32,000 nt of DNA from Rickettsiales bacterium (lineage in GTDB: Bacteria > Pseudomonadota > Alphaproteobacteria > Rs-D84). The stretch is from positions 1-32,000 of the forward strand of contig JAIRUP010000005.1 of assembly GCA_031254335.1 (NCBI GenBank). The letters are read 5' to 3'. The notes below the pieces were generated by a model. The model made no database searches. It saw only the letters and a list, made by a program, of their open reading frames with translations, and was not told where the DNA came from. The translations under genes and the position numbers were made by a program. Below, piece after piece: positions 994 through 22,334 of the stretch. Each line of letters begins with the position of its first letter. Positions within the stretch are counted from its first letter, which is position 1.

Positions 994-1158
994 AATAACT
1001 CAAAAAATATTAGTCCGCTCGCGTTTTCAAGGATAGAACGCCCGAGGAACAAGGGAAACCGGCGCGCGCTAGGCTTAGCCGCTCCTGCGAAGCCGGTTTC
1101 CCGCCGTTAATCGGCGTTATGGACCGAAAACGAAAAAGTGGACTTATATTTTTTGTCC
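994..1158 (+). repeat. E-repeat copy E1 (structured intergenic element, about 165 bp)
   Basis: Starts AATAACTCAAAAAATATTAG and ends GGACTTATATTTTTTGTCC. Nested stems: CGTTTTC/GAAAACG, GGGAAACCGGC/GCCGGTTTCCC and AACGCC/GGCGTT. It fills most of the 257-bp parA-parB gap. Confidence 0.8.
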
Positions 1159-1161
1159 TTA

Positions 1162-1938
1162 TCATTTCGTATCCCCCACGGCTTCGACGATTTCGGTGGC
1201 AAGACGCAAATACGCCTGCGACCCCGGCGACTGGAAATCGTAGAACAATGCCGGCTGTCCATAGCTTGGTGCTTCGGACAGTTTGACCGAACGCGGGATA
1301 ATGGTCTTGAACACCTTGTCGCCGAAGACTCCTCGGACATCGTCCTCGATAAGTTTGGAAAGGTTGTTCCGCTTGTCATACATGGTAAGGACGACGCCAA
1401 GGATATTAAGCTCGGGGTTCCATTTGTCCTTGATTTTGGATATGGCGTTCATAAGGTGCTGGATTCCTTCCAAAGCGAAGAATTCGCATTGAAGGGGAAC
1501 CAGAAGGTCGGTCGTGGCCGACAGGGCGTTTAGCGTCAAAAAGCCGAGGGCAGGGGGGCAATCGAGCAGGATATAGTCGTAATGCCCGGCTATCTCCGCC
1601 AGGGCCTCTTTCAGGCGGTATTCGCGCCGGTCCATATCAAGAAGCTCGACCTCGGCCCCGGCCAGCTCCGCGCTGGACGGCAGTATATGAAGGTTGTCCA
1701 CGGCGGTGGATAGGATGTTTTTCCCAATGGGGGCATACCCCATAAGGACATTGTAGACCGATTCCTTATGGTTGGCGCGATTGAATCCCAGGCCGGTTCC
1801 GGCGTTTCCCTGGGGGTCCAAATCGACTATTAAAACGCGTTTTTTGATTGCGGCAAGGCTGGCGCCGATATTGATTGCGGTGGTGGTTTTTCCAACCCCG
1901 CCCTTCTGGTTTGCAAATGAAATTATCCGTGTGGTCAT
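1162..1938 (-). CDS. parA: ParA/Soj chromosome partitioning ATPase
   Basis: MTTRIISFANQKGGVGKTTT carries the deviant Walker A motif. I chose the ATG at 1938 with a GAGGGAAG SD. The longer track ORF (to 2043) runs through repeat H2. Confidence 0.93.
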   Translation of the reverse strand: MTTRIISFANQKGGVGKTTTAINIGASLAAIKKRVLIVDLDPQGNAGTGLGFNRANHKESVYNVLMGYAPIGKNILSTAVDNLHILPSSAELAGAEVELLDMDRREYRLKEALAEIAGHYDYILLDCPPALGFLTLNALSATTDLLVPLQCEFFALEGIQHLMNAISKIKDKWNPELNILGVVLTMYDKRNNLSKLIEDDVRGVFGDKVFKTIIPRSVKLSEAPSYGQPALFYDFQSPGSQAYLRLATEIVEAVGDTK

Positions 1939-1947
1939 CTTCCCTCT

Positions 1948-1989
1948 ATTGTCATTCTCGGGCTTGACCCGAGAATCCAGGTAATAAAC
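1948..1989 (+). repeat. H-hairpin repeat copy H2
   Basis: ATTGTCAT-TCTCGGG-CTTGA-CCCGAGA-ATCCAGGTAATAAAC. It has the same flanks and loop as H4 (rc 22121-22157), but the stem is TCTCGGG/CCCGAGA instead of GGTCGGG/CCCGACC. Confidence 0.65.
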
Positions 1990-2128
1990 TGTCGGCTTCG
2001 CCGACTCAACTTGAAGATACAAATTTCCCCGGCGTTCGGTCAAGAATAATATCCAAAACCCCGGTAGAAAAATTCCCCTCCAAGGGAGGGGTGGTGGCGA
2101 AGCCGACGGGGTGGGAATAAAATCCCGA

Positions 2129-2171
2129 ATCAGCTAAAATCAAACACTTATTTGACATTTCATGTGAAATG
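2129..2171 (-). repeat. 43-nt module, copy 1 (inverted partner of 3373-3415), upstream of parA
   Basis: ATCAGCTAAAATCAAACACTTATTTGACATTTCATGTGAAATG matches the reverse complement of 3373-3415 at 39 of 43 positions by my alignment. Confidence 0.75.
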
Positions 2172-2202
2172 CCCCCTTTCAGGGGGCATTTCACATGAAT
2201 AA
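2156..2202. promoter_or_regulatory. Two parS-like sites (A 2156-2171, B 2187-2202) forming the arms of a perfect 18-bp-stem palindrome (2159-2199)
   Basis: Site A is CATTTCATGTGAAATG and site B is CATTTCACATGAATAA. The arms TTCATGTGAAATGCCCCC / GGGGGCATTTCACATGAA are exact reverse complements around the loop TTTCA. The TTTCAC/TGAAA core resembles the parS consensus TGTTTCACGTGAAACA. The structure lies immediately 3' of mreB and upstream of parA. Confidence 0.45.
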
Positions 2203-2218
2203 CAAACCTCAAAAAATA

Positions 2219-3313
<1,095 letters not shown>

Positions 3314-3372
3314 CTAAGACTTGCGAAAAATCAAGTGGGAATTTTGGACTATTTTCAAGCGTTTTATAAAAA

Positions 3373-3415
3373 CATTTCACATGAAATGGACAATAAGTGC
3401 TTGATTTTAGCTGAT
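3373..3415 (+). repeat. 43-nt module, copy 2, including parS-like site C (3373-3388), upstream of rsmG
   Basis: CATTTCACATGAAATG is a 7-2-7 palindrome and the exact reverse complement of site A. It is followed by GACAATAAGTGCTTGATTTTAGCTGAT and ends 13 nt before the rsmG ATG. Confidence 0.75.
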
Positions 3416-3428
3416 ACAGGAAAAAATA

Positions 3429-3986
3429 ATGAACAAGAAAGAGCTCTATTTGAAAATGGTGCGCGAAGCGTCCGCCCGGATGAATCTTGTGGCGAAATCG
3501 ACCCTGCCGGACTTGGAGAACCGTCATTGGGCCGATTCGGCGCAGCTTGCGGCATATATAGGGGCCGATTCGCTGGTTATGGATTTGGGCAGCGGCGCGG
3601 GCTTTCCGGCGGTCATCCTGGCGATTCTGGGATATAAGGTCGTCGCAATCGAAAGCATAGGAAAAAAGGCCGCCTTTCTGTCCGAGGTAAAATCCCGTTT
3701 GGAATTGGATAATCTGACCGTTTGGAACGACCGAATCGAAAACAAGATGAAAGAAATCCAAGGGAAAAACAATATTGTGTTCGTCGCCCGGGCCTTTGCA
3801 AGTTTGGATAAGATTCTGGACCTGACCGGGCGCGTCCCGGGCGCGCGCTGGGTCCTTCTGAAAGGCCGAACCGCCGAAGACGAAATAAAGGCCGCCAAAA
3901 AACGCTTTTCATTCGATTATAAAACGACGAAATCTTCGTCCGGGGATGGATTTGTCCTCGAAATAAATACCGTAAAAACTAAATAA
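3429..3986 (+). CDS. rsmG: 16S rRNA m7G527 methyltransferase RsmG (GidB)
   Basis: 185 aa. MDLGSGAGFPAVILAI is a SAM-binding motif, and RHWADS and ARAFASL are RsmG-like blocks. Confidence 0.85.
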   Translation: MNKKELYLKMVREASARMNLVAKSTLPDLENRHWADSAQLAAYIGADSLVMDLGSGAGFPAVILAILGYKVVAIESIGKKAAFLSEVKSRLELDNLTVWNDRIENKMKEIQGKNNIVFVARAFASLDKILDLTGRVPGARWVLLKGRTAEDEIKAAKKRFSFDYKTTKSSSGDGFVLEINTVKTK

Positions 3987-4104
3987 ATCTCCCAAAATTA
4001 GCCAATATATACTAGTGATAGTTGATAACATTTTATTATTCTAACAAATGTGCTAGGATTATAATCATAGGCAATTCAGTCTATGAAACAAAAGGGAAAA
4101 CACA

Positions 4105-4440
4105 ATGAATAACACGGAGCATAATTTCAACCGATTCGCGGACGCGGACGCGCTTTGGTTTTGGTTCGTCGCAAGCAAGCGCATAAAGACAGGCTTTATG
4201 GCGAGATACGCCGGCGGGGCGAACCGCCCGTGCGAAATCCTGGACATGGAGGTCTTGATGACAAGGCTGAACCTGTCGGGGAAATTGCCGAACGCGGCCT
4301 TGAATGTCCTGACGCGATACGGGTTCTTGCGGCGCGCGCCGAACAAAAACCTTCGGCACGAGGAAAAGGACGCGGCGGCTTGGGAAGGCGCGATGGAAAC
4401 CATAACGGCGGCGGCCAAAGCGAAAGGATGGTTGGAATGA
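4105..4440 (+). CDS. Hypothetical 111-aa protein on the islet; possible HTH, unverified
   Basis: The ORF has an AAGGGA SD and a perfect TATAAT at 4060-4065 upstream. I recognise no family. The C-terminal half (LSGKLPNAALNVLTRYGF) is HTH-like by eye only. Confidence 0.45.
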   Translation: MNNTEHNFNRFADADALWFWFVASKRIKTGFMARYAGGANRPCEILDMEVLMTRLNLSGKLPNAALNVLTRYGFLRRAPNKNLRHEEKDAAAWEGAMETITAAAKAKGWLE

Positions 4441-4479
4441 TAAAAGTAAGAAGGATGAAGGCAGAGGGAAGAAGGGTTG

Positions 4480-4649
4480 ATAATTATATAAGTCCCGAAA
4501 AATCCAGGCGCAATCGCGTTTTCGAGGACAGATTGTTCAATGCGAAGGAAAACCGCCGCGCGTCTAGGCTGACCGCCTGCGAAGGCGGTTTTCCAAGCAA
4601 GTGGACAATATGGACCGAAAACGAAAAATTGCGCCAAGGATTTTTTGAC
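4480..4649 (+). repeat. E-repeat copy E6 (degenerate; boundaries approximate)
   Basis: The interior aligns with E1. Stems: GCGCAAT...CGTTTTCG / CGAAAACG...ATTGCGC and GGAAAACCGCC/GGCGGTTTTCC, with an apical AGGC-TGACC-GCCT and GCGAAGG. The termini are eroded (ATAATTATATAAG ... GGATTTTTTGAC). Confidence 0.55.
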
Positions 4650-4884
4650 TGTTCGTATTTGATTGGATTCACTCCGAATACAAGGCGCAGACTCGTCCGG
4701 GTTTTTTGTAGAAAATACCGGCATTGCGCGGTTGTTGACTTGGAGAACATGATTCTAATCCAAATCGGAATCGACGGGGTCCGTCTGGTCCGAATAGACG
4801 CGGGCGGGCTGGGCAGGCTTGCCGCGCATGGCTGGGTGTTCGTCTTGGCGAAACCGCGCCGCAGCCCGAAGGGCGGAGGCGGGG

Positions 4885-4908
4885 CGCAGTTCAATATATT
4901 GAACTGCG
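4885..4908. promoter_or_regulatory. 24-bp perfect palindrome, candidate operator or recombination site
   Basis: CGCAGTTCAATA|TATTGAACTGCG has exact 12-bp arms. It lies about 90-140 bp upstream of the two panA-proximal promoters. Confidence 0.4.
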
Positions 4909-4972
4909 TCGGCTTCGCGAAGCGGTGCCTGGGAATCCGCAACCCGTTTATCCTGACGCCGCTGGACTTGTA

Positions 4973-5001
4973 TAGACATCTAGTAAAAAATATGATATAA
5001 T
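4973..5001 (+). promoter_or_regulatory. Sigma70-type promoter P1 with extended -10
   Basis: TAGACA, 17 nt, TGaTATAAT. The TG is at 4993-4994 and the TATAAT at 4996-5001. Confidence 0.55.
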
Positions 5002-5021
5002 CAGAAAAAGGAGAGGGGTTC

Positions 5022-5050
5022 TTGACTTGCAAAAGAACTATTCCTATAAT
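5022..5050 (+). promoter_or_regulatory. Near-consensus sigma70 promoter P2 for the Panacea/toxin operon
   Basis: TTGACT (5022-5027), a 17-nt spacer, then TATAAT (5045-5050). It ends 19 nt before the ATG at 5069. Confidence 0.65.
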
Positions 5051-5068
5051 CGGGTCAGGTAATAAGAA

Positions 5069-5620
5069 ATGTCGATAAGATTCAATACAAACACTCGCAA
5101 AGCCCTTGAAGCTATAATATACTTGGCCAATAAAAAAGCCGATATGACGCAGTATTACTTTATGAAAATGATATTTTTCGCGGAAAAATATCATATAAAC
5201 AAATACGGAATTCCAATCATAGGCGACAGATATATAAAAATGGACAATGGTCCTGTCCCGTCCTTTGTGCTCGACGCAATCCGCCTTGACGGAGCTAAAC
5301 TTACGCACGATATATACGAGGAAATAAACAAGTCTTTGGATTTCAGGAAGGATTCAAAAAAAATCCACACTTCGGCAAAGCGCAAGCCGGACCTGTCTTT
5401 TCTATCGTCCACAAACTTGGAATGCCTGGACAAGGCGTTCAATTTATGCAAGGCCAAATCATTTGATGAATTAAAAAATCTTACGCACGAGGAAACCGCT
5501 TGGAAAAAAGCCGTTCGCAACAGGGATATGGACTACGCGTTGTTCGTTGACGACAACCATCCTGACAAAGAAATCATCGTGGCGGACCTATCGGACAACT
5601 TCGGCACATTGGTTCTGTGA
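5069..5620 (+). CDS. Panacea-domain (DUF4065, SocA/GepA-like) putative antitoxin
   Basis: 183 aa. YFMKMIFFAEKYHINKYGIPIIGDRYIKMDNGPVPSFVLDAI fits my recollection of the DUF4065 core (K-hh-Y-a-..-G.P.. then GPV.P.V). The gene is AT-rich relative to its neighbours. Confidence 0.7.
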   Translation: MSIRFNTNTRKALEAIIYLANKKADMTQYYFMKMIFFAEKYHINKYGIPIIGDRYIKMDNGPVPSFVLDAIRLDGAKLTHDIYEEINKSLDFRKDSKKIHTSAKRKPDLSFLSSTNLECLDKAFNLCKAKSFDELKNLTHEETAWKKAVRNRDMDYALFVDDNHPDKEIIVADLSDNFGTLVL

Positions 5621-5621
5621 T

Positions 5622-6002
5622 ATGCTGTTTAAGACCGGGCGTATTTACCATTTCACGCCCTGTCGGGCTTCCAATCCTGAAAAGAACAAATATGCGATAT
5701 GTGTTTCTGGGAAAAATAACTGGTTTTTCCTTATAAATTCATGTTCTGATACGCCCCCTGTAAGGCCCTATAAGCACGAGACTGATAGGGTGGCTTATCT
5801 AAACAAATTTCAAGTTCAACCTTTAAGCAAACGCTCTTATGTTAATATTTCGATGCTGAAAACCATATACGACTCCGATTATGATTCTTGCAAAGAATAT
5901 GATAAGGTCAGCAATATGGTATGGCTGGATATAAAACAGCTTTGTATTAAGATACTTCCGGCCCAGTCCAGCGAAGTAATATCGGCTGAAAAAGTAGTCT
6001 AA
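5622..6002 (+). CDS. Candidate toxin partner (126 aa); distant MazF/PemK-like pattern, unverified
   Basis: The ATG lies 1 nt after the upstream TGA (TGAtATG). It is in frame within track ORF 5547-6002. GRIYHF..(11)..KYAICVS...WFFLINS...LSKRSYVNISMLKTI...KVSNMVWLDIKQL parallels MazF GDLIWVDF..RPAVVLS...CVPCTT...ADQVKSI...TVAPEELQLIK by eye. Confidence 0.5.
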   Translation: MLFKTGRIYHFTPCRASNPEKNKYAICVSGKNNWFFLINSCSDTPPVRPYKHETDRVAYLNKFQVQPLSKRSYVNISMLKTIYDSDYDSCKEYDKVSNMVWLDIKQLCIKILPAQSSEVISAEKVV

Positions 6003-6165
6003 TAAGCTCAAAAAATATTAGTCAAATCGCAATTTCGAGAATAAAACGCCCAATACCAAGGGAAGGCGACCCAAGTCTGGACATAAGCGTCCGCGAGGGT
6101 CGCCTTCCCGAAGCGTAGTGGGGGTTTTAGGCCGAAATTGAAATATTTGACTTATATTTTTTGTC
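6001..6165 (+). repeat. E-repeat copy E2
   Basis: AATAAGCTCAAAAAATATTAG...TTGACTTATATTTTTTGTC. Stems: TAGTCAAAT/ATTTGACTA, CAATTTCG/CGAAATTG and GGGAAGGCGACCC/GGGTCGCCTTCCC, with an apical GGAC-ATAAGC-GTCC. The left end overlaps the toxin stop codon (6000-6002). Confidence 0.85.
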
Positions 6166-6180
6166 GTATAGTATAACGCG

Positions 6181-7962
6181 ATGAAACATTACGATGTCGT
6201 TATTATAGGCGGGGGGCATGCGGGGGCCGAGGCGGCCGCCGCGGCAAGCCGGCGCGGCGCAAAGGTCGCCCTGATAACCAAATCCCCAGGCGACATCGGC
6301 GCCATGTCGTGCAATCCCTCCATCGGGGGCCTTGGCAAATCCCAGCTTATTGCCGAAATCGATTCCCTTGGCGGCATTATGGGAGCGGCTGCCGACGCAA
6401 GCGGCATTCAGTTCAGAATCCTTAACGCCTCGCACGGGGCGGCGACCCAAGCATTGCGCGCGCAAATCGACAGGCCCCGGTATGCCCGCGCCGTCCTGTC
6501 CGCGCTGGATGGAATCGACATTATTTACGGCGATGTCGCCGGGCTGGATTTGGAAGGGAGAATAGTTGAAGTAATAAATCAGCTCCCCCCATGCGGGGGA
6601 GCCGGCGAGGAACGAGCCGGCGGGGGGTCGAATGCTGAATTCAACCCCCCGCCTGTTCGCGTTCCGCTCACAGACTCCCCCGCAAGGGGGGAGTTGGTTA
6701 AGGCGAAGGCCATTGTAATAAGTGCCGGAACCTTTATGAACGGACTTACCCACATGGGGGCGGACAAAAAACCGTCGGGCCGCATAATGGACAACCTTGA
6801 ATATCAGGACAATGACAAAACCTTGTCCCCGGTTTTGCGGGCCGCGGGATTCGAACTTAAAAGACTTAAAACCGGGACCCCGGCAAGGCTGTTCCGGGAC
6901 TCGATTGACTTCCGGGGCCTGGCCGCCCAGCCGTTGGAACCTTGCGAAGGGGCGCGCTTTTCGAATACGGCAACCCAGCCCAGGGCGGCGAGCGTCGCCA
7001 CCTGTCATATCACCCATACGACCGAAAAAACCGCCGGCATTATCCGCGAAAACATCGGGAAAGCCCCAATGTTCAGCGGCGAAATCGAGGGTATCGGCCC
7101 CCGTTATTGCCCGTCCATCGAGGACAAAATCATGCGCTTCCCGGAGCACCTTTCGCACCATGTCTTCTTGGAGCCGGACGATTTGGAAGGGAGCCTTGTT
7201 TATCCAAACGGCATATCGACTTCGTTCGGGGCCGACATCCAAGACAAGTGGCTTCGGACCATTCCGGGTTTGGAGAATGTCCGCGTCGCCAGATACGGCT
7301 ATGCCGTGGAATACGACGCCATAGACGCGCGGGAACTAAAAACCACCCTGGAATCGAAAAGGATTCCGGGGCTGTTCTTCGCGGGGCAGGTGAACGGCAC
7401 TTCGGGATACGAGGAGGCCGCCGCCCAGGGCCTGGTCGCCGGGGCCAATGCCGCCGCTTTCGCTATTGGCGCGAAGCCCTTGGTCTTGGACCGCGCCAAT
7501 TCCTTTATAGGGGTTTTGATAGACGATATTACGACGCTGGGCGTGGACGAGCCCTACCGGATGTTTTCGTCCCGTTCCGAATACCGCCTGACGCTGCGCT
7601 GCGACAATGCGGTCCAAAGGCTTTGGGGAATTGCGAAGGAATTGGGGCTGCTGACGGCGAAGCAGGGCGAAACGCTTGAAAAAAACATGCCGGGAATCGT
7701 AAAAAAGACAGCTGAAATTGACAAACTGTATTTTGGTTATGTTGGCAAACAATACCAAGACATCGAGAAAATGCGTCAAAATCTGTCGCTGAAAGTGCCA
7801 GTGGCGTTCGATTACATGGATTTGCCCGGCCTGACCCTTGAACTTAGGCAAAAGCTGAACAGGGCGCGCCCGGAGAATATTCATGCTTTGTCCCGAATCC
7901 AGGGCATGACCCCGGCGGGCGTTTTGGTCGTGTTGAGGAAGGTTAAAAGATGCGGTTCATAG
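6181..7962 (+). CDS. mnmG: tRNA U34 5-carboxymethylaminomethyl modification enzyme MnmG (GidA), carrying an internal insertion
   Basis: 593 aa. [16 protein letters not shown] is the FAD-binding motif. [20 protein letters not shown] and [19 protein letters not shown] are MnmG signature blocks. Confidence 0.95.
6580..6696 (+). repeat. 117-bp GC-rich nested palindromic element inserted in frame in mnmG
   Basis: The termini CAGCTCCCCCC and GGGGGGAGTTG are inverted repeats. There are three local hairpins: GCTCCCCC-CATGC-GGGGGAGC, GGCGGGGGG-N17-CCCCCCGCC and ACTCCCCC-GCAAG-GGGGGAGT. The element starts on a codon boundary and encodes [39 protein letters not shown]. Confidence 0.8.
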
Positions 7963-8570
7963 ATTACTATTTTAGCGAGATGCCGAAGCACTTGGATATG
8001 TCCAAACGGTCCGAGCTTTATTCGGTTAATGACTTCACCTTTGCGGTCGCGGTCATCCTGTCCGCTCAGGCTACCGATAAAAAGGTGAATGAAATCGCCC
8101 CGGCCTTGTTCCGCGCCGCGCCGAACCCGGAAAAAATGCTGGAATTGGGGCTGGCGGGTCTTAAAAAACACATAAAGGTCATATCGTTCTTCAACAACAA
8201 GGCCAAAAACATAATGGCCATGTCGCGCATCTTGAAGGGCGGGGCGTTGCCCCGGACCAAAGAGGAATTGATTGCGCTGCCGGGCATTGGCGAAAAGACC
8301 GCGAATGTCATTATGAATGTCCTTTGGGGCGCGCCGCTGATTGGGGTCGATACCCATGTGTTTCGGCTAAGCCGTCGGTTCGGCTGGTCGGACGCGAACA
8401 CTCCCGAAAAGGTCGGCAGGGACTTGGCGCGGGTCGTTCCGAAGAAATATCACGGAATCGTGAATCATGTGATGGTTCTGCACGGAAGGTATATTTGCAG
8501 GGCCCTGCGTCCGAAATGCGCCGAATGCCCCGTCCGTGCGAAATGTCCGTTCAAGGGGAAAACTGTCTAA
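7950..8570 (+). CDS. nth: Endonuclease III (Nth)
   Basis: 206 aa. It has [10 protein letters not shown], the HhH-GPD block [20 protein letters not shown] and the 4Fe-4S motif C-X6-C-X2-C-X5-C ([17 protein letters not shown]). The start overlaps the mnmG end. Confidence 0.92.
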
Positions 8571-10900
8571 GCTACTTTTGACATATACTGCTTGTATATC
8601 GCGTGCATTTCGCGGACTTTCTTCGCGCGCTCTTCCTCGGACAGTTTCTCGTTGTTCGCCTCGACGGTCATTTTTCTAAGCTCGAATGTGGCGGCGTCGA
8701 AATTCTTCTGCGTTTCCACGCGGTCGCGGAATATGCTGTTGTCGTAGCTGGACGCGACCTCGTTTATCTCGATTCCAAGCTGGGCCAGCATGCCGCGCGT
8801 TCCGGCGTTCATTTCGCTTCCGAGCATTTTGGCGTTCGTCCTGTCGGACATCCTCATGCTTTCCTCGCTTATGAGGGAATTCCAGAAATTGACGAGCCTT
8901 GAAACGCTGGCGTCCTTCTTTTCCGGTATGGTTTTCCTGGTTTCAATGATTTCCTTGGCCCTCAGCTGCCGCTCTATCAGCAGTTCCGTGGATTTTTCAA
9001 GGCTGCCCACCAGGCCGTCCAGCTTTTTCAAAAGCTCGCCGTCGCCAAGGCCGTCTATCGCCCGGCCGAGCGCGGTGCGGCCGAGGTCGTCTTTCTTTGC
9101 GCGGGCGGCCTCGGAAAGCATGGCTTCCGTTTTTTGCTCGTCCGCTATTTCCTTTTCAAGCTGGGCGCGCGCGCCGTTGTCGTCGTCGTCGAATATCCCC
9201 GGCTCCGCCTGGGGTCGCGACTTCAATATCTCTATGGCGGTTCGGGACTCCAAGACCTTGTCCAGGGCTTCTTTGAGTTCGTCTATCGCGTCCTGGGTCT
9301 TTCGGAATTCCGCGCGCAGCTCCGCGTCGGGGGCGTTCCAGTCGAAGGCGGCGGATTCCAGGCCTTCTTTAAGGTGCTTGTTTTCTTCCGGCGAGCGCGG
9401 CGGAAGATTGGTGTCGCCAATCGCTATGTCCTTTTCAAGGCCCTTCTCGACATTCCCCTTGGACAGTTTTTTCCTGCGGTTGAATATCAGGTTTTTCGTA
9501 AGGACCGTCGATTCGAAGACCGCGCGCGCGGCGGCGTTCATTCCGAAATCCACGGCCTTGGCGAAGAATTGGAGCGGCGGGGCGGACTGGAACGCGGGAA
9601 GCCCCGACATGATTCCCCAATCGGACTGCTTGAAGGCGTCGCGCCGCGTCGACAGCAGCCTGCTTCCCGCGAGGACCGAAAGGCATTCCAGGACGATTTG
9701 CGGGTATTTGTCGCCCATGATGTGCTCTTTCAGGGCGAACTTTCGGATTAGTTCGCTTACAAGCTCGGTCATTTGCTGGGAATTTTTGAGCGCGCCCGCG
9801 AACACGAAGGGCTTTTCCTTCTTTATATCCTCCAAATGGGACTTCATCCATTCGGCCGCGCCGGTCGAGTATGACGACAGATTCGGGTTCTTTTTCGTGT
9901 TCACATCCCCAAGGGCTTTGATGAATCCGTCCAGCCCGTCCTTTGGCGAGAATCCGTCCCCGAGAACCATGACCTGTTCCATGATTTCGGCGGCGTCGGG
10001 GTCGCGGTATCTGTGCGAAAGATGGCGGTCGAACCGTTTGAGGAGCCTGTTGTCCAGGACTTCCCGCACCTTGGCTTTCGCCCAGTCGAATCCGACCAGG
10101 TTGTCCTTCGGCTCCATCGGGATGTCTTCGGGCTTCCTTTCCTTGGACCGGATTATGTATCCGGCCAGCTCGGGGTCGAACTTGTCTATGAGGCTTCTGT
10201 TCTTTTCGTTGATTGCCAGATACAGGTTGTTCATATAGCCCTGGTATATTTCCGCGAAATTATCCAGCTGGTGCCTTGTGTGGGTGGTGGTTTCGCCGAT
10301 ATAGTCGTCGATTGCCTTCGCGGCCGCGCCAAGGTCCTCGCCGGTCCTATTGACGAACCTGTCGACCTTGGGCATATTTTTGAGTATTTCGCTTATTTCC
10401 GCCAGGACATCGGCGGCGAGCGGCGCGCCGGAATATATCTGCCCGGCGAGGCGGCGGGCGTTGTATCCCATTCCCAGCTGGTAGTATTTGTTGTTGTAGG
10501 CCTGATGGTTGTCCTGCAAGATTCTCGCTATGTTGTTCCTTGACTTTTCTTCCGCGAGCGTTTTGGGATACTTGAATGTGGGGAACGCTTCCGCCCACTT
10601 GTCGTTCCCTATGAGGGCCTTCAAGCCGGGGTCTTGCAGGGGCGTCTCCTCGTTCATGCCGCGAAGCCCGGTCATTATGGTTTTCAGCCTTTCGTAAAGC
10701 AGCTCGAACACTTCATAGCTGGGGACGGGAATCTTTTCGGGTATGAAGCCCCACGCATACAGTTTTCCGCCGTTGCGGTTCTGCTTTTTAAGCTCTTTGT
10801 ATCTGTCCAGCCTTTCCCTGGGAACCATGTTGAAGTTTTCCCAGTTGAAATGCTGTTCGAGAAGCTGGCCTAGATTTTGTATGAACCTGTCGTCCGCCAT
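8567..10900 (-). CDS. Large orphan hypothetical protein (777 aa from MADDRF...)
   Basis: The ORF is long and uninterrupted, with even codon usage. I chose the ATG at 10900 with an AAGGGGG SD (the track start at 10939 is 13 codons upstream). I see no recognisable catalytic or nucleotide-binding motif. The C-terminal quarter or so is E/K/A/L-rich and looks like coiled coil. Confidence 0.7.
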   Translation of the reverse strand: MADDRFIQNLGQLLEQHFNWENFNMVPRERLDRYKELKKQNRNGGKLYAWGFIPEKIPVPSYEVFELLYERLKTIMTGLRGMNEETPLQDPGLKALIGNDKWAEAFPTFKYPKTLAEEKSRNNIARILQDNHQAYNNKYYQLGMGYNARRLAGQIYSGAPLAADVLAEISEILKNMPKVDRFVNRTGEDLGAAAKAIDDYIGETTTHTRHQLDNFAEIYQGYMNNLYLAINEKNRSLIDKFDPELAGYIIRSKERKPEDIPMEPKDNLVGFDWAKAKVREVLDNRLLKRFDRHLSHRYRDPDAAEIMEQVMVLGDGFSPKDGLDGFIKALGDVNTKKNPNLSSYSTGAAEWMKSHLEDIKKEKPFVFAGALKNSQQMTELVSELIRKFALKEHIMGDKYPQIVLECLSVLAGSRLLSTRRDAFKQSDWGIMSGLPAFQSAPPLQFFAKAVDFGMNAAARAVFESTVLTKNLIFNRRKKLSKGNVEKGLEKDIAIGDTNLPPRSPEENKHLKEGLESAAFDWNAPDAELRAEFRKTQDAIDELKEALDKVLESRTAIEILKSRPQAEPGIFDDDDNGARAQLEKEIADEQKTEAMLSEAARAKKDDLGRTALGRAIDGLGDGELLKKLDGLVGSLEKSTELLIERQLRAKEIIETRKTIPEKKDASVSRLVNFWNSLISEESMRMSDRTNAKMLGSEMNAGTRGMLAQLGIEINEVASSYDNSIFRDRVETQKNFDAATFELRKMTVEANNEKLSEEERAKKVREMHAIYKQYMSKVA

Positions 10901-10976
10901 AATCGCCCCCTTGGCTCTTATACCCCAATTATAACCCAAAATGGACGAAATTCAAGGAAAACCGCCGAAAATATTA

Positions 10977-11222
10977 AATAAACTCAAAAAATATTAGAAA
11001 ATCAGAGCCGATAGGAAATCGTCCGATGCGCAGGAAAGCCTCGGCCCGAGTCTGGCCTTATATGGCCGCGAGGGTGAGGGCGGAACCAGAAAACATGCCG
11101 GGTGGCATGTTTTCCCGCCCGAGCAGAATCCCCGAATCTTTGATTCGGTGGATTCGTTGAAGTTTTCCAAGCAAGCGGGCGATTTATTGCGGCGATTGTT
11201 TTATTTGCTTATATTTTTTGTC
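10977..11222 (+). repeat. E-repeat copy E3 (expanded, 246 bp)
   Basis: It has canonical ends (AATAAACTCAAAAAATATTAG ... GCTTATATTTTTTGTC) and the core GTCTGGCC-TTATAT-GGCCGCGAGGG. About 80 extra bp include the hairpins AAAACATGCC-GGGT-GGCATGTTTT (11090-11113) and CCGAATC-TTTG-ATTCGG. Confidence 0.75.
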
Positions 11223-11304
11223 CTTGCTTTTTCAGAAATTTCGGTAATAATCAGCCATCCCCATGGGCGAGGCATTGCCCCAAGGAAACTCAAAAGGATA
11301 AAAC

Positions 11305-11508
11305 ATGCCGAAACTGAAAACAAACTCGTCCGTGAAGAAACGATTCCGGGCGACCGCGACTGGCAAAATAACCGCCCAGGCCGGAAACAGAAACCACTTC
11401 AAATCGAAGCGTTCGTCCCGCGCCCTCGTGGCCTGCCGCCACGGCAAGGAGCTTGGCTCGGCGCACAAGAAGCAGATTAAAAAATTGTCCCCATACGGGC
11501 TTAAATAA
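11305..11508 (+). CDS. rpmI: 50S ribosomal protein L35
   Basis: MPKLKTNSSVKKRFRATATGKI is the typical L35 N-terminus. The protein is 67 aa, an AAGGA SD precedes it, and rplT follows. Confidence 0.9.
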   Translation: MPKLKTNSSVKKRFRATATGKITAQAGNRNHFKSKRSSRALVACRHGKELGSAHKKQIKKLSPYGLK

Positions 11509-11970: not shown

Positions 11971-11992
11971 CGCGGCTTGTATTTTGCAGACG

Positions 11993-12020: not shown

Positions 12021-12058
12021 CATTGCCCGTCGTGCCAGCGAAAAGAAACGAGGAAACC

Positions 12059-13030: not shown

Positions 13031-13031
13031 T

Positions 13032-15969: not shown

Positions 15970-15978
15970 TTGATTTCG

Positions 15979-16011
15979 CCTCTTTTCGGGTTAGTATAAC
16001 CCGAAAAGAGG
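15979..16011. promoter_or_regulatory. 33-nt perfect palindrome containing the SD of both divergent genes
   Basis: CCTCTTTTCGGGTT-AGTAT-AACCCGAAAAGAGG has a 14-bp perfect stem. On the plus strand it is followed by TTTTT. AAGAGG lies 8 nt before the ychF ATG, and its mirror AAGAGG lies 9 nt before the minus-strand ATG at 15969. Confidence 0.6.
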
Positions 16012-16019
16012 TTTTTACA

Positions 16020-17072: not shown

Positions 17073-17097
17073 ATCGCGCTCCGCGCGATAGTTTGGA

Positions 17098-17133
17098 ACA
17101 ATCTGAGATTCCCGTCTCCGCGGGAATGACAAT
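17098..17133 (-). repeat. H-hairpin repeat copy H3
   Basis: The reverse complement reads ATTGTCAT-TCCCG-CGGAGA-CGGGA-ATCTCAGATTGT. Confidence 0.65.
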
Positions 17134-17142
17134 TTAATAAAT

Positions 17143-17306
17143 AATAAACTCAAAAAATATAAGCAACGCCGCAAATTCGATGAATAATCGTCCGATACCA
17201 AGGGAAGGCGGCCCGAATGTGGACTTGCCGTCCCTGAGGCGTCGCCTGACCGCCGGTAGCGGACGATTAGGCGCGAATTTGAAAATCGTTGCTTATATTT
17301 TTTGTC
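17143..17306 (+). repeat. E-repeat copy E4
   Basis: AATAAACTCAAAAAATATAAG...GTTGCTTATATTTTTTGTC. Stems: TAAGCAACG/CGTTGCTTA, CAAATTCG/CGAATTTG and AATCGTCCG/CGGACGATT, with an apical GGAC-TTGCC-GTCC. It ends 1 nt from the argS stop codon. Confidence 0.85.
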
Positions 17307-17307
17307 T

Positions 17308-18981
17308 TTACATCTCGCTTGGGATTTGCATGCCGAGCAAGTCAATTGCGACGGTCAGGACGCGGAGGGAAATTGCGACCACCGCCTTCCTGTGCGGGTC
17401 GTCCGACTTCAATATCGGATAATTGTGGTAGTAATTGTTGACGGCCTGCGCCAAGTCATAGGCGTAATTCGCAAGCAGCTCGGTCTGGTATGTTTCCGCC
17501 GCCTTTGACACCGTCCTGTCGAAATCGTTCAGCATCATAATCAGGGCGCGTTCTCCCGCTCCGTCTATTTTGTCCCCGAATTCGCATTTGCTGAAATCCT
17601 CCCCGGCCTTGGCCTGGATTGCAAGAAGGCGCACCGCCGTATAAAGCACCCCCGCGCCGGTCCTTCCCTCGAAGCTGGTTAGCACGGCCGGCTCGAACAC
17701 ATAATTGTCCATCATTCCGTGCGCCAAATCATTGAATTTAAGCGCGGATACGGCGATTTTGCGCATATCCCCCGCCGAAATATCCTTTCCGCTCTCCTGG
17801 ACGCGTTTTTGGACTGCCTGGACGGTCATTTCCACTATCCCCCGGATGGACGGCGTGCCGCCGTCCCTGGTCTTGAAGGGCTTGCCGTCAGAACCGTTCA
17901 CGGTTCCATAGCCCAAATGCGTTAATTTCGCGTCTGAAAGCCCGGCGCGCCGCGCGACGGCGAACAACTGTTTGAAATGAAGGTTCTGCCTGAAATCGGT
18001 TATATAAAGCAGTTCGTCGGGCTTGTCGTCCCGGCTCCGATAGTAAATCGCGCCCAAATCCGTCGCGGCGTATGTGTCCGTCCCGTGCGATGTCTTGAAG
18101 AGAAGCGGCGGGGTGTTTTCGTCTATGCGGACTATTTCCGCGCCCTGGTCCTTTTCCAAAAGGTTTTTCACTCGAAGGATTTTTTCGACATCGGACACGA
18201 AGCCGGACGCGTATTTTTCCCCCTGCCATTTGTCGAACGGTATGACATTCATGCCTTCTATGATTTCCCGGGCGTCCTTCATGGTTATATTCCGGAACCA
18301 TTCGTAGATTTTGGAATATTCGGGATTGCCGCTTTGGAAAAGGGCGGTTATCTTTTGGGCGCGAGCGTTCCAGTCGGGGTCGGCTTTGGACAGCTCGGAC
18401 GCCTCGGGATAAAACTTGTTCAGCTCGTCCGCGGTAAGCGCGTCCGGCATTCCGTTCGGATATTTTTCCATAAGAATCGCTATGACCTTTCCCATCGGCA
18501 GGCCCCAGTCGCCGAGATGGTTGTAGGCGACCGTCTTATGTCCGGCCGCGCGGAGGATTCGGTTTAAGACATCGCCGACGATTAAGGCGCGAAGGTTTCC
18601 CATGTGCGCGCTTTTGGCGATATTGAAGCTGGCGTAATCCATGTCGATTTTTTTGGGCGCGGCGGCTTGGGTGATTTCGTCCGCGCGGCGCGCGGCGTCC
18701 AGCAAAAATTTATCGGTTAAAACGATATTCACGAATCCGGGCTTGGCGATTGACGCGGAGCTTACCTCGGGCATGAGGGTAAGTTCGATTGCGAGTTCCG
18801 CCGCCAAGTCCATGGGATTCGTCCCGAGGGTTTTCGCGGCCGTCATGGCGATATTGGTGGCGTAATCGCCGAAATCGGGATTTTTGGCGGCCTCGAACGC
18901 GATTTTTTGGACGATTTCGGCGGGGTATTTGCAAAGCAGAACTTTTTTCGCCGATTCCGATAAGACAAATGGGATGTTCAT
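17308..18981 (-). CDS. argS: Arginine--tRNA ligase
   Basis: 557 aa. It has an HIGH-type motif (AKSAHMGNLR), an anticodon-binding C-terminus ending in M, and the typical ArgRS blocks DFGDYATN and ITDFRQ..HF. Confidence 0.93.
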   Translation of the reverse strand: MNIPFVLSESAKKVLLCKYPAEIVQKIAFEAAKNPDFGDYATNIAMTAAKTLGTNPMDLAAELAIELTLMPEVSSASIAKPGFVNIVLTDKFLLDAARRADEITQAAAPKKIDMDYASFNIAKSAHMGNLRALIVGDVLNRILRAAGHKTVAYNHLGDWGLPMGKVIAILMEKYPNGMPDALTADELNKFYPEASELSKADPDWNARAQKITALFQSGNPEYSKIYEWFRNITMKDAREIIEGMNVIPFDKWQGEKYASGFVSDVEKILRVKNLLEKDQGAEIVRIDENTPPLLFKTSHGTDTYAATDLGAIYYRSRDDKPDELLYITDFRQNLHFKQLFAVARRAGLSDAKLTHLGYGTVNGSDGKPFKTRDGGTPSIRGIVEMTVQAVQKRVQESGKDISAGDMRKIAVSALKFNDLAHGMMDNYVFEPAVLTSFEGRTGAGVLYTAVRLLAIQAKAGEDFSKCEFGDKIDGAGERALIMMLNDFDRTVSKAAETYQTELLANYAYDLAQAVNNYYHNYPILKSDDPHRKAVVAISLRVLTVAIDLLGMQIPSEM

Positions 18982-19042
18982 TTTTAAGTTCCTGTTTTGG
19001 TGATTAATACTATCAATATATTACCAAAATCGCAAGTTCTTC

Positions 19043-19070
19043 TTGACTTATCGCGTGTCCGCGTCATAAT
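19043..19070 (+). promoter_or_regulatory. Sigma70-type promoter for the tRNA gene
   Basis: TTGACT (19043-19048), a 16-nt spacer, then CATAAT (19065-19070). It ends 12 nt before the tRNA 5' end. Confidence 0.6.
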
Positions 19071-19081
19071 GCCAGACATAT

Positions 19082-19158
<77 letters not shown>

Positions 19159-19159
19159 A

Positions 19160-20074
19160 TTATTCCATAATTTCATAATTTTCTGGGTCTGCGAATAATT
19201 TGCGCAGGACTTCGTTGTTGAGTCCGTGAGAGCCCTTGACCGATTCGACGCGGCCTACGATTTCTCCTCCGCTTGTGAACATGTCGCCGACCAAATCCAC
19301 GATTTTATGGCGCACGAATTCGTCCTTGAAATGCAGCTTGTTGAGAGTCCCGGTGCCGTCCTGATTCAGCACTATGACATTGTTCTCGGAGGCTCCCCGG
19401 CCCATTCCGCGCCGCTTCAAATATTCCCATTCCGAAATCCGGCCGAATGTCCGCGCCGTCGCTATGTCTTTTATGAACGCCGCGGCGTCGCCTTTCCAAT
19501 CGAATGCCTGTCGTCCTATGGCCTTGTCGGGATAGTCCAGGACCGCATGGATTTCTAGGCCGCGCGCGGGGGACAATTTCACGAATCCGTCCTCTTTGCG
19601 CCCCGTTTTAAGGTTGTGGAGCAAAAGCATGGCGCGCCGCGCGAACGGCAGTTTTTTTATAAGGTCTTTGCGGTATGCGACGACGGTTTTTTTGACCTTG
19701 ATTTTTTTGAGCGCGGGCGCGCCGGCGGTTCCCGCGGCCCTTATCAGTTTTATGAATTCGGCCGCGCTGCCGTCCATAATCGGCGTCTCCGGCCCGTCTA
19801 TTTCCACAATCGCGCCGTCTATTCCCATGATGAAAAGCGCGGCCATCAAATGCTCTATCGTTTGGACCGAATTTTCGCCGCGGCCGATGGTCGTGTTCAT
19901 GCGCGTGGCGTCGGATACGCCGTCCCAGGTTGCGGGTATAAGCGGCGCGCCCTTGATGTCCGTGCGGCGGAAGAATATTCCGGGCGTTTCGCTTGGCAGT
20001 ATCCGAACATTGACCGGTGCGCCGGAATGGATTCCGACGCCTTTTATTTTGACCGTATTTTTGACCGAAGCCAT
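19160..20074 (-). CDS. lpxC: UDP-3-O-acyl-N-acetylglucosamine deacetylase LpxC
   Basis: 304 aa. GVGIHSG, TIEHLMAAL, PIMDGSA and the HKIVDLVGD blocks are characteristic of LpxC. Confidence 0.92.
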   Translation of the reverse strand: MASVKNTVKIKGVGIHSGAPVNVRILPSETPGIFFRRTDIKGAPLIPATWDGVSDATRMNTTIGRGENSVQTIEHLMAALFIMGIDGAIVEIDGPETPIMDGSAAEFIKLIRAAGTAGAPALKKIKVKKTVVAYRKDLIKKLPFARRAMLLLHNLKTGRKEDGFVKLSPARGLEIHAVLDYPDKAIGRQAFDWKGDAAAFIKDIATARTFGRISEWEYLKRRGMGRGASENNVIVLNQDGTGTLNKLHFKDEFVRHKIVDLVGDMFTSGGEIVGRVESVKGSHGLNNEVLRKLFADPENYEIME

Positions 20075-20970
20075 TTGTAGAACTCCTTCTCTATTTCCGT
20101 CGTCATTTTAAGGACCTTGACCTTTTTGACGAACCAGTCCGGCAGGCGCGCCGCGTCTTTTTCGGTCGTCCAAAGCTCCGCCCGTATGGCGGCCAGCTTG
20201 GACAGTTCCGATTCTGTGAATTCGTGGTGGTCCGGGAACGAAAGCTCTACCGCCGTTTCCCTGCCGGAAAGCTCCCTTAGCGAGCGGAAGAATTTCTCGG
20301 GGTATCCTATGCCAGAGAACGCGGCGATTCTTTTTCCGAATTTTATGCTTTGGAATTTCCGCGCGGCCGAAAACACCGGGATGTTCTTTATCATATTTTT
20401 AAGGCCGGTCTTGTCCTCGCCTACTATGATGACGGCGTCCGCGCGGGCGAGGCCGGATTTCAGGGATTCCCTAAGCGGCCCGGCGGGAAGGATATATCCG
20501 TTTCCTATTCCGAGGTTGCCGTCGAAAACCAAAATCGAGACCGTCTTTTTAATCGTGGGATTCTGGAATCCGTCGTCCATTATTATGCAGTCGTATTTCT
20601 GCATTTTGGAAAGGTTCGCGCGGCGGTTCTTGCCGACGAATACATCCGCGTGCTTGGAAAGCATTTTAGCCTCGTCGCCGATGTCGCGCACTGTGTCGGT
20701 TTTGACGGCTTTGCCGGTTTTTCCGCCGCCGTATCCGCGCATGAGTATTGCCGAGTTCGGAGTGTTTTGGGCGATTTCCATGACGATTGGCGTTTTCCCG
20801 ACGCCGCCCGCGAATATGTTCCCGACGCAGATTACGGGCTTTTTGGATGCGGCCGCGCCGAAGGAACGGACGATGAAATGCGCCTTGGCCGCCGCGTTAT
20901 ACAGGAACGCCAAAGGCGAGAGGGCGCGCGCCGCAAAATTCCTTTTCAAGAACCAGGATGGAGTGTTCAT
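20044..20970 (-). CDS. lpxK: Tetraacyldisaccharide 4'-kinase LpxK
   Basis: 308 aa. VICVGNIFAGGVGKTP is the P-loop, and MDDGFQN and RGYGG blocks are present. The 3' end overlaps the lpxC start by 31 nt. Confidence 0.88.
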   Translation of the reverse strand: MNTPSWFLKRNFAARALSPLAFLYNAAAKAHFIVRSFGAAASKKPVICVGNIFAGGVGKTPIVMEIAQNTPNSAILMRGYGGGKTGKAVKTDTVRDIGDEAKMLSKHADVFVGKNRRANLSKMQKYDCIIMDDGFQNPTIKKTVSILVFDGNLGIGNGYILPAGPLRESLKSGLARADAVIIVGEDKTGLKNMIKNIPVFSAARKFQSIKFGKRIAAFSGIGYPEKFFRSLRELSGRETAVELSFPDHHEFTESELSKLAAIRAELWTTEKDAARLPDWFVKKVKVLKMTTEIEKEFYKWLRSKIRSK

Positions 20971-21671
20971 TGCGATTTCTTCGAGTCGGCCGGTTGTATT
21001 TTTTCTATGCCGAATTCGGCGTCCAAGTTCTGCATTTGCTCCACCATTGTTTGCTCCAACCCGGCCTTGACTGTTTTAAGCTCGTCCTCGGAAATACTCC
21101 GCGGGACATAGACCGGGATTCCGACATCGACCTTTATGCGGCCGAAGGGCTTGCAAATCATATATCTGTCCCAGCTGCGCTTTATGGCGCGCCGCGAGCA
21201 CGAATAGCATACGGGGATGACGGGCGCGCCGGTTATTTTGGCGAGATAGAATATTCCGTCCTCCTTTATTCTCATGCGCGGGCCGCGGGGGCCGTCGGGC
21301 GTCATGCAAATCATGCCTCCGCGGCGAAGGACCCTTATGCCCTCGCGCAGGACCGAGGCTCCGTTCTTGCTGGTGCTTCCGAATATGGGCCTTAAACCGA
21401 ATATGCGCTGAATCTTGGCCATAAGCCTTCCGTCCCTGTGCATGGACGATATGGCGTATCCCGACAGCCCGCGAGTGCGGACCAAGGGGGAAAGCATCAT
21501 GCTTCGCCCGTGCCAGAACGCGAACAGGGCGGGTTTCTTTTTGTATTCCTTGAAAATTCTCCTGTTTTCGACGGCGACCCGGTTGGATAAGAATATGAGC
21601 CATATGACGCCGGATACGATTCCGGCGACAAGCCATTGGACGGGGGCGATTCCGAGTATTTTCTTCATCAT
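20967..21671 (-). CDS. DUF374-type lysophospholipid acyltransferase-family protein
   Basis: 234 aa with an N-terminal TM segment. FWHGR, S.S.DG and TPDGPRGP blocks match my recollection of DUF374 proteins, which accompany lpxK/waaA in alphaproteobacteria. ATGA overlap with lpxK. Confidence 0.65.
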   Translation of the reverse strand: MMKKILGIAPVQWLVAGIVSGVIWLIFLSNRVAVENRRIFKEYKKKPALFAFWHGRSMMLSPLVRTRGLSGYAISSMHRDGRLMAKIQRIFGLRPIFGSTSKNGASVLREGIRVLRRGGMICMTPDGPRGPRMRIKEDGIFYLAKITGAPVIPVCYSCSRRAIKRSWDRYMICKPFGRIKVDVGIPVYVPRSISEDELKTVKAGLEQTMVEQMQNLDAEFGIEKIQPADSKKSQ

Positions 21672-21702
21672 AAATGAATTTTAGCAAGGGCGGCAAAGGA
21701 AT

Positions 21703-22107
21703 TCAAGGAATTACCGTAATCTCCCGCGCGTCGCCAATCGGGTTTTCAATAAGGATTTTTATCCCGTTTTTGACAAGCCCCGCGGCCTTCTCGGGCCATT
21801 CTATGAATACGATGGAATTGGCGAGATAATCGGCCAAGCCAAGCTCGGCCAGTTCGTCGGAAGATTCCACGCGGTATAAATCGAAATGGGCTATGCGGCC
21901 GCGCGGGGAATCGTAGGTCTGGACTATATTGAAAGTCGGGCTTGGGACAATCGTGTCCGCGCCGCATAATTCGCGGATTGCGAAGCGGACGAATTCGGTC
22001 TTGCCCGCGCCGAGCGGCCCGGATAGAAGAACGGCCTGCGGCGCGCGAAGCGCGGCCGCGAATTCCCGCGCGAAACTTTCAAGTTCGGACAACGAATTGA
22101 TTTTCAT
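21703..22107 (-). CDS. tsaE: tRNA t6A37 biosynthesis ATPase TsaE (YjeE)
   Basis: 134 aa. It has the LSGPLGAGKTEFVR P-loop, SPTFNIVQTY, HFDLYR and the IEWPE blocks. Confidence 0.85.
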   Translation of the reverse strand: MKINSLSELESFAREFAAALRAPQAVLLSGPLGAGKTEFVRFAIRELCGADTIVPSPTFNIVQTYDSPRGRIAHFDLYRVESSDELAELGLADYLANSIVFIEWPEKAAGLVKNGIKILIENPIGDAREITVIP

Positions 22108-22120
22108 ATATTGATTATAA

Positions 22121-22157
22121 TAACCTGGATGGTCGGGTCAAGCCCGACCATGACAAT
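22121..22157 (-). repeat. H-hairpin repeat copy H4
   Basis: The reverse complement reads ATTGTCAT-GGTCGGG-CTTGA-CCCGACC-ATCCAGGTTA. Confidence 0.65.
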
Positions 22158-22169
22158 TTAATTGATATT

Positions 22170-22334
22170 AATAAACTCAAAAAATATTAGGCCAATCGCA
22201 ATTTCGAGGATAGATTTTCGAGAAACAAGAAAACCCGGCCGCCGTCTGGACATCGGCGTCCGCGGCGCGTCGGGTTTTCGCAGTTAATCGGAAATATAGA
22301 CCGAAATTGAAATATTGGCCTTATATTTTTTGTC
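22170..22334 (+). repeat. E-repeat copy E5
   Basis: AATAAACTCAAAAAATATTAG...TTGGCCTTATATTTTTTGTC. Stems: TAGGCCAAT/ATTGGCCTA, CAATTTCG/CGAAATTG and GAAAACCCG/CGGGTTTTC, with an apical GGAC-ATCGGC-GTCC. The right end overlaps the stop codon at 22333-22335. Confidence 0.85.

Follow-up and report, generated by a model that had tools for sequence, protein, structure and literature searches.

REPINs are non-coding, multi-copy repeats that replicate as a unit, a long hairpin with two inverted arms; their ends are conserved in sequence, their middles keep only length and pairing by means of compensatory changes, and they lie outside genes, often just after them (PMC3116915). Compensatory changes are common in these hairpins, and a model involving a single strand has been proposed for them (PMC3116915). 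The pneumococcal repeat SPRITE has AAAA/TTTT termini and a long duplex followed by a T-rich tract, shows no clear target duplication, and is enriched near the 3' ends of coding sequences and between convergent genes (PMC3049150). A third kind, the palindromic repeats of Rickettsiales known as RPEs, measures ~100-150 bp and can join coding sequence (PMC10969869). Here, we describe a family of ~165-bp imperfect palindromes in a 32,000-nt stretch of DNA from an uncultured Rickettsiales bacterium (contig JAIRUP010000005.1, positions 1 to 32,000; hereafter the window) and in related genomes. We conclude that it is a new family of a known kind, the palindromic miniature repeats that include REPINs, SPRITE and RPEs, and not a new class of RNA gene.

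The family shares the REPIN traits named above. Its ends, however, are AT-rich and built on A6/T6, where the REP sequence, which occurs in a REPIN as a doublet, is GC-rich and carries GTAG; the element is 165 nt long, against about 70-110 nt, and no RAYT, the tyrosine transposase that mobilises REPINs, was found in the DNA examined. To our knowledge, strict stop-codon polarity, which we report below, has not been described for REPINs. The SPRITE traits are shared as well, although the two families come from different phyla, have no sequence relation and resemble each other in kind only: the present element is a much longer hairpin of several helices, its internal loops are conserved and its covariation can be demonstrated, and it abuts or overwrites stop codons. 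As RPEs can, it joins coding sequence, supplying the last codons of several genes; RPEs typically lie in frame inside genes and encode a conserved peptide, whereas the present family is intergenic or terminal.

More distant systems offer partial parallels. In integron attC sites, structure is conserved over sequence, the fold of one strand is the substrate, and the sites are co-oriented at the 3' ends of genes. The present element is alike in its conservation of structure and not sequence, its one-strand fold, its co-orientation and its position at gene 3' ends, but its termini (CAAAAAATAT/ATATTTTTTG) lack the R''/R' core sites (RYYYAAC/GTTRRRY), no integrase or attI is nearby, there is no cassette array, and its neighbours are housekeeping genes. 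For the ends of IS200/IS605 insertion sequences (IS), as for attC sites, it is established that the fold is needed for propagation. IS200/IS605-derived PATEs have sub-terminal hairpins at each end, lack a terminal inverted repeat and insert strand-specifically 3' of a fixed tetra- or pentanucleotide; in the present family insertion is polar and one strand is favoured, but the element is a single hairpin closed by genuine terminal inverted repeats. ERIC/IRU and Correia (NEMIS) elements are imperfect palindromes of 100-160 bp, intergenic or co-transcribed, with orientation-dependent RNA effects; Correia elements differ in carrying an IHF site and a TA duplication, ERIC elements in having no A6/T6 ends. 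We know of no description of stop-codon polarity as a feature of either. Neither has any sequence relation to the present element, a comparison that draws in part on background given in PMC3049150.

The window holds five clear copies, E1 to E5, and one diverged copy, E6, as had been proposed in an earlier, sequence-only reading of the same DNA. Matches to the left-end 21-mer AATAAACTCAAAAAATATTAG with at most 3 mismatches lie at 993, 6001, 10977, 17143 and 22170, all on the + strand and with 0 expected, and the right-end 15-mer CTTATATTTTTTGTC occurs exactly at 1143, 6151, 11208, 17292 and 22320. When the six claimed copies were aligned with MAFFT, the ends proved conserved and the interiors loosely so. 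The two ends form an imperfect terminal inverted repeat, also noted before, reading (TA)AACTCAAAAAATAT on the left and, for the right end in reverse complement, (TA)AGGACAAAAAATAT. A covariance model (CM) built from the window copies was used to place them and to search related loci. E6 is a real copy that starts near 4488 and not at 4480 as first thought, and E3 is expanded, as claimed; its extra sequence consists of two additional hairpins. The sequence-only reading had also suggested a possible minimal copy near virB4. This candidate has family-like termini, and its right end overlaps the stop codon of virB4 (801-aa open reading frame, ORF) by -3 nt, as true copies do; however, the model did not detect it at E<=1, and its fold is weak (-11.3 kcal/mol, z -2.7).

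Loci of relatives were fetched via homologues of MnmG and GyrA, and they define four family-carrying genomes. All are related, uncultured metagenome-assembled genomes (MAGs) labelled Rickettsiales or Alphaproteobacteria: B, the genome of the window; A, Ga0123356, with a GyrA 85% identical to that of B; D, a 142-kb contig containing loci L126 and L133 (GyrA 79%, MnmG 65% identical to B); and E, a Rickettsiales MAG represented by locus L004. The loci examined cover a few percent of each genome and give a sample of 23 copies in about 150 kb; the elements are non-coding and 160-246 bp long. No copy was present in the 20 kb examined of a fifth relative, C (L131), or in 22 kb of a more distant MAG (L128). 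Scanning one genome per species with both termini returned one true relative (L004), three chance matches and no match in any Rickettsia genome; a scan of metagenomes returned 120 loci, four of them true relatives, all contigs of the one sample Ga0123356, and the others were discarded as chance pairs of A-runs and T-runs. The lack of a match to any known RNA family, already noted in the sequence-only reading, held in Rfam: only a tRNA passed the gathering threshold in the window, and at E<=1 the contig L001 gave only chance microRNA and viral matches far below threshold. No match to E5 was found by blastn among PLSDB plasmids and INPHARED phages. L001, a Logan contig from an independent short-read assembly (SRR14710927), is 100% identical to window positions 4444-11221, beginning just before E6 and ending at the end of E3. 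That an independent assembly breaks at copies indicates that the elements are natural and repetitive enough to fragment assemblies.

Every window copy folds into one long imperfect hairpin, closed by the A6/T6 terminal inverted repeat of ~14-20 nt, with a minimum free energy of -72 to -108 kcal/mol and a z score of about -9 to -11; the reverse complement folds too, as expected for a DNA palindrome. The stems had been said to covary, and they do. RNAalifold predicted 55 pairs from the six window copies, 28 of which show compensatory double changes. Our main alignment consists of 17 strong copies found by the covariance model in genomes A, B, D and E. There, 95.4% of pair cells are paired, compared with 75% for shuffled partners and 38-48% for slid partners, and 43 of the 53 pairs have changed on both sides; 0 of 500 shuffles reached any observed measure. 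Because this alignment was fitted to the structure, the test was repeated on a plain, sequence-based MAFFT alignment of 18 copies, and compensatory changes were found in 33 of the 39 predicted pairs. Stem pairing is thus kept by compensatory change well beyond the controls. Just inside the terminal repeat, 4-6 pairs are near-random in sequence and yet paired in 16 of 17 copies. Several internal loops, by contrast, are conserved in sequence in all genomes, with TCGC opposite GAAA and GAGGATAGA opposite TATAGAC. Conserved loops next to stems that keep only their pairing indicate that the palindrome is not simply regenerated by fold-back copying of one arm. The unpaired GTCT and GCGAGG earlier said to bracket the apical hairpin are conserved in most window copies, but not in the other genomes. 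The family is a clean, strongly covarying addition to the few bacterial miniature repeats that inherit a fold rather than a sequence. Covariation of the kind that R-scape measures cannot by itself tell a host RNA gene from a mobile hairpin, however, and checks of context and turnover are needed.

The two strands are not equivalent. On the + sense strand, the strand written out in the sequence-only reading, paired positions include 34 G·T combinations and 8 A·C combinations, and the + sense RNA fold is the more stable one in 18 of 22 copies. The large excess of G·T over A·C indicates that the fold of one strand is maintained, and the earlier phrase 'RNA or ssDNA structure' was a fair description of it. 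Relative to the gene that ends at the element, the maintained fold lies on the antisense strand; the mRNA of that gene therefore cannot be where the explanatory selection acts. Orientation is largely uniform, being shared by 7/7 window copies and 9/10 on the D contig, copies abutting no stop codon included; L133 contains opposite-orientation copies ~10 nt apart.

The strongest contextual regularity, absent from the sequence-only reading, is a polarity of the elements at stop codons. For each end we took the nearest stop codon belonging to an ORF of 80 aa or more that reads into the element, and determined how far away it lay. The right end (…ATATTTTTTGTC) lies within 5 nt of such a stop codon, or overlaps it, in 16 of the 23 copies; for the left end the count is 4 of 23, with credible genes involved in only 2. 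Natural C-termini are mostly intact (ArgS ...EM*, YchF ...FNN*, ABC protein ...G*), with the element 0-4 nt past the stop codon. At ychF in D the junction reads TGA-AT|GAC, and the empty ychF end in B also carries TGA-AT (TGA ATcgcg), which shows that the flank is target sequence and that the element ends at GAC. Elsewhere the last codons are encoded by the element itself, as in rplT, pheS and ftsA of D and DUF805 of B; rplT in D ends with GCC AAA AAA TCC TAA, the end of the element, instead of GCG AAG ACG AAA TAA. Copies that are not intergenic extend over no more than the last 1-7 codons of a gene. At two loci a single copy exactly fills the gap between convergent genes (see the table), and in L133 a back-to-back pair has its left ends facing and its right ends on their own stop codons. 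A full copy in L135, also between convergent genes, stands back to back with a remnant that looks like a second, decayed copy. That leaves E2, E3, E6 and three copies of L126, which are situated upstream of genes or within non-coding DNA. Taken together, the polarity at stop codons and a fold kept on the opposite strand give a testable clue to the mode of integration, and this is the part worth following up.

Comparison of the genomes established that the elements are mobile DNA, with turnover, nesting and recent copies. In D, parA and parB overlap (ATGA) and hold no element, whereas their junction in the window holds E1 and ~90 nt. There is likewise no element upstream of mnmG in D, the site filled by E2 in B. 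The 3' end of DUF805, next to gyrA, is empty in C and filled after TAG-TAAG in A; in B the element lies 5 nt before the old stop codon, and the protein ends ...YRQKI* and not ...YRK*. One 30-nt arm of this B copy is identical to that of E3, although arms usually differ between copies, which indicates that it was copied recently inside genome B. At the 3' end of argS, B carries a copy and A does not; at that of the ABC-transporter gene there is a copy in D, a remnant in A and nothing in C; and the radC 3' end is polymorphic for presence and absence too. No copy was seen at the same junction in two genomes (compared at 79-85% GyrA identity), sub-families are genome-specific, and short-read contigs end inside copies. 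Tandem left-end stubs of ~45 nt, which end at an internal GGATAA, directly precede full or shortened copies, as expected either from one-ended events or from nested insertion into an internal hotspot with later deletion. Such high turnover argues against host-level conservation of individual copies. [quoted passage not shown] In this uncultured, Rickettsiales-like lineage with reduced genomes, the elements reshape gene ends, split the parA-parB operon and fragment assemblies.

The reading we favour, with a confidence that leans only somewhat to its side, is that of a non-autonomous, non-coding mobile palindrome of ~165 bp, REPIN-like, that is propagated via a single-stranded hairpin and forms a terminator-like gene end. 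New copies would arise through the copying of whole elements, and only lineages with a foldable + sense strand would keep propagating, which would explain why changes are compensatory and why that strand tolerates G·T but not A·C. The mobilising enzyme may act on the folded single strand, in the manner of REPIN/RAYT or of single-strand transposition of the IS200/IS605 type. Polar insertion into A-rich sequence at the extreme 3' end of genes, reflecting strand-specific integration, would leave the right end flush with a stop codon or supplying one. Once inserted, the hairpin with its T-run would probably act as a terminator-like and possibly bidirectional gene end, which could explain why insertion there is tolerated or favoured. 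Taken together, the conserved loops, the pairing-only stems and the one-strand G·T bias show that a single-stranded fold is under selection, and a fold needed for propagation seems to us the most economical reading.

No transposase turned up in the window, nor do the Pfam calls listed for genes at the clade loci that were fetched by protein include one; a Y1_Tnp domain was likewise missing from the window Pfam matches and from the listed Pfam calls of the fetched loci (a few percent per genome), and no parent IS with the same termini was seen in the window or fetched loci. The result is compatible with a helper that acts in trans and is rare or single-copy. No conserved outward promoter was found either, promoter-like matches at the ends being specific to single copies.

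Several points weigh against the REPIN-like reading. Neither the window nor the fetched loci yielded a helper enzyme, be it RAYT, Y1 or another, and no genome-wide search was made. The termini lack the GTAG motif of REP sequences, and, in contrast to the ends of IS200/IS605, genuine terminal inverted repeats close a single hairpin that spans the entire element. GC skew gives no consistent orientation relative to replication, agreeing with one at 4 loci and disagreeing at 3. The evidence for a putative terminator is the hairpin and its T-run, and the sample comprises only 23 copies, from loci partly picked by pattern match. Finally, most copies have a TA on both sides, 4-5 nt outside the A-run and the T-run (TA|AACTC... 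...GTCCT|TA), a fixed spacing that would fit a cut-and-paste MITE of the IS630 type too.

A conventional MITE of this sort would move as double-stranded DNA by an IS630/Tc1-mariner-type DDE transposase, inserting at TA and duplicating it; it would be palindromic because of how it originated, and selection on the transcript, for instance for harmlessness or terminator activity, would preserve the pairing. This would account for the terminal inverted repeat of ~14-20 nt and the flanking TA in most copies, as well as for AT-rich ends, a length of ~165 bp, multiple copies and polymorphism between genomes. The TA is missing on the gene side, however, in E3, E5, E6 and D-type copies, and the GAAT flank at ychF in D is ancestral sequence. 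Moreover, neither the stop-codon polarity nor the one-strand G·T bias is expected from double-strand cut-and-paste, and no DDE transposase was seen in the DNA examined. We therefore consider a conventional MITE unlikely, if the most serious of the alternatives. The gene-side flank is frequently TAAG or xAAT; we considered TAAG as a fixed part of the element and rejected it, since the DUF805 copy of B lacks it and, at ychF in D, the flank is demonstrably ancestral.

The position of the copies at gene 3' ends, the exact filling of gaps between convergent genes and a long hairpin followed by a T6 run on both strands would also suit a cis-acting RNA maintained by the host: a portable element that terminates transcription independently of Rho, possibly in both directions, or that stabilises 3' ends. 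The covariation would in that case stem from a function of the RNA, and SPRITE provides a precedent (PMC3049150). Such a role is hard to reconcile with a better-kept fold that is antisense to the abutting gene, with the lack of any junction shared between genomes, with stubs and nested copies, and with copies inside operons (parA-parB, rplT-pheS-pheT) or, as with E2 and E3, upstream of genes, positions at which strong termination would do harm, and we give it a rather low probability. That the copies are independently transcribed small RNA genes on the + strand, with the hairpin and U-run as their own terminator, would explain the G·U tolerance, the more stable + strand fold and the co-orientation of all window copies, but seems highly improbable given the absence of a conserved promoter or Rfam relative, the high copy number and rapid turnover, the truncated copies and the overwriting of coding 3' ends.

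A bolder extension of the REPIN-like reading, to which we attach little credence, is that the folded strand is moved by an enzyme new to such repeats, strand-specific at A-rich ends of coding sequences and writing a stop codon, sometimes the last codons as well, and a terminator as it inserts; the element would then be a self-propagating 'gene-end cassette' that also promotes in-place inversions of the gene blocks lying between copies. When B is compared with D, three neighbouring blocks, [777/790-aa gene], [rpmI-rplT-pheS-pheT] and [sufBD-like, ychF], each show an in-place inversion, with mnmG-nth unchanged, and the elements at the borders of the blocks keep the same polarity in both genomes. 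That these inversions came from recombination between inverted arms of neighbouring palindromes is a conjecture.

Table. Positions of the copies, of their remnants and of neighbouring features, in the window and in loci of related genomes.
Feature	Locus	Coordinates	Strand	Model score; fold	Context
E1	window	994..1157	+	CM 151 bits; -72.6 kcal/mol	between parA (minus) and parB; right end followed by CTTA, then parA stop codon TGA (1162-1164, minus strand)
E6	window	4488..4649	+	CM 152 bits	within ~1-kb stretch without credible gene; diverged termini CCCGAAAAATCC ... GGATTTTTTGAC
E2	window	6001..6165	+	CM 171 bits; -80.4 kcal/mol	16 nt upstream of mnmG start (6181)
E3 (expanded)	window	10977..11222	+	CM 111 bits; -108 kcal/mol	divergent spacer between 777/790-aa gene (minus) and rpmI-rplT-pheST (plus)
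Insert in E3	window	11070..11160	+	-50.5 kcal/mol, z -5.2	~85 bp extra, two additional hairpins near apex; alignment gap in all other copies
E4	window	17143..17306	+	CM 163 bits	between convergent ychF (end 17072) and argS (stop codon 17308-17310); ArgS C-terminus ...EM* intact; TAA, then A, then GACAAAAAATAT
E5	window	22170..22334	+	CM 170 bits	between tsaE (start 22107, minus) and 193-aa ORF; terminal GTC overlapped by stop codon TGA of that ORF (-2 nt)
Possible minimal copy, internally deleted or decayed	window	22967..23020	+		family-like termini
Single copy filling gap between convergent genes	L004	4378-4543			
Single copy filling gap between convergent genes	L133	12694-12856			
Back-to-back pair	L133	20572-20736 and 20747-20832			left ends facing
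Full copy back to back with remnant	L135	13330-13493			between convergent genes
Remnant, 64 nt	L135	13494-13556			starts GGACAAAAAT, directly after ABC-transporter stop codon TAA
Left-end stubs (two)	L082	2055-2142			
Left-end stub	L113	3753-3795			
Left-end stub	L004	6150-6201			
XerC/XerD-like tyrosine recombinase gene (301 aa)	L113	2682-3587			stop codon 1 nt from right end of a copy
Stretch after gidB	window	3987-5068			~1 kb without credible gene, contains E6
AT-rich stretch	window	5001-6000			40% GC
SocA/Panacea antitoxin-like gene	window	5069-5620			in AT-rich stretch
mnmG	window	6181-7962	+		
Insertion in mnmG	window	6577-6699		-92 kcal/mol	GC-rich ~123-bp palindrome
Start region of 777/790-aa gene	window	10900-10939			true start ~10900
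Blocks inverted in place	window; L126	8567-17072; 6692-15485			B versus D
Motif ATGACAATTTAAT	window	17126-17138; 22150-22162			5-10 nt left of E4 and E5
CTCCCCC-N5-GGGGGAG hairpin	L004	1172-1190			single occurrence

The recombinase of L113 is the only one seen adjoining a copy, and it is probably a housekeeping enzyme. The genes of the window are parB, parA, mreB, gidB, the SocA-like gene, mnmG, nth, the 777/790-aa gene of unknown function, rpmI-rplT-pheST, a sufBD-like gene, ychF, argS, tRNA-Met, lpxC, lpxK, tsaE, virB4, virB3, mreC, PBP2 and rodA. For the gene of unknown function, the D orthologue and a 777-aa database entry place the true start at a Met 13 codons downstream of the start of the 790-aa ORF. 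The 790-aa protein and the 791-aa protein of D are homologous (29% identity, E 3e-42), and a homologue search with the 790-aa protein returned only itself.

ORFs that overlap E6 and other copies look spurious, those over E6 being low-complexity without a Pfam match; the idea that E6 is an RPE-like in-frame insertion was accordingly rejected. The region after gidB and the adjoining AT-rich stretch look like a degraded or acquired island. No second copy of the E3 insert was found among the clade loci. E4 and E5 share an extra motif to their left (see the table), which may be a longer left extension of some copies or may mean that the two are duplicates including flank.

Start-to-start spacings in the window are 5007 nt (E1-E2), 4976 nt (E2-E3), 6166 nt (E3-E4) and 5027 nt (E4-E5). 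Three of them fall within 51 nt of one another, a coincidence with a nominal P of ~2-4e-4 that is a posteriori and ignores E6 and the minimal copy. A 5-kb periodicity is not supported as a real feature: L126 shows none, and E6 and the minimal copy break the pattern in the window.

MnmG has a ~40-aa insertion that is absent from all homologues and is encoded by a separate palindrome, in which two inverted CTCCCCC-N5-GGGGGAG hairpins surround a central hairpin. Palindromic and inserted in frame, it belongs to the RPE kind and is more RPE-like than the ~165-bp family. The same short hairpin occurs once in L004, and the MnmG of another MAG (P0012) carries a different insertion, of 41 aa, elsewhere in the protein.

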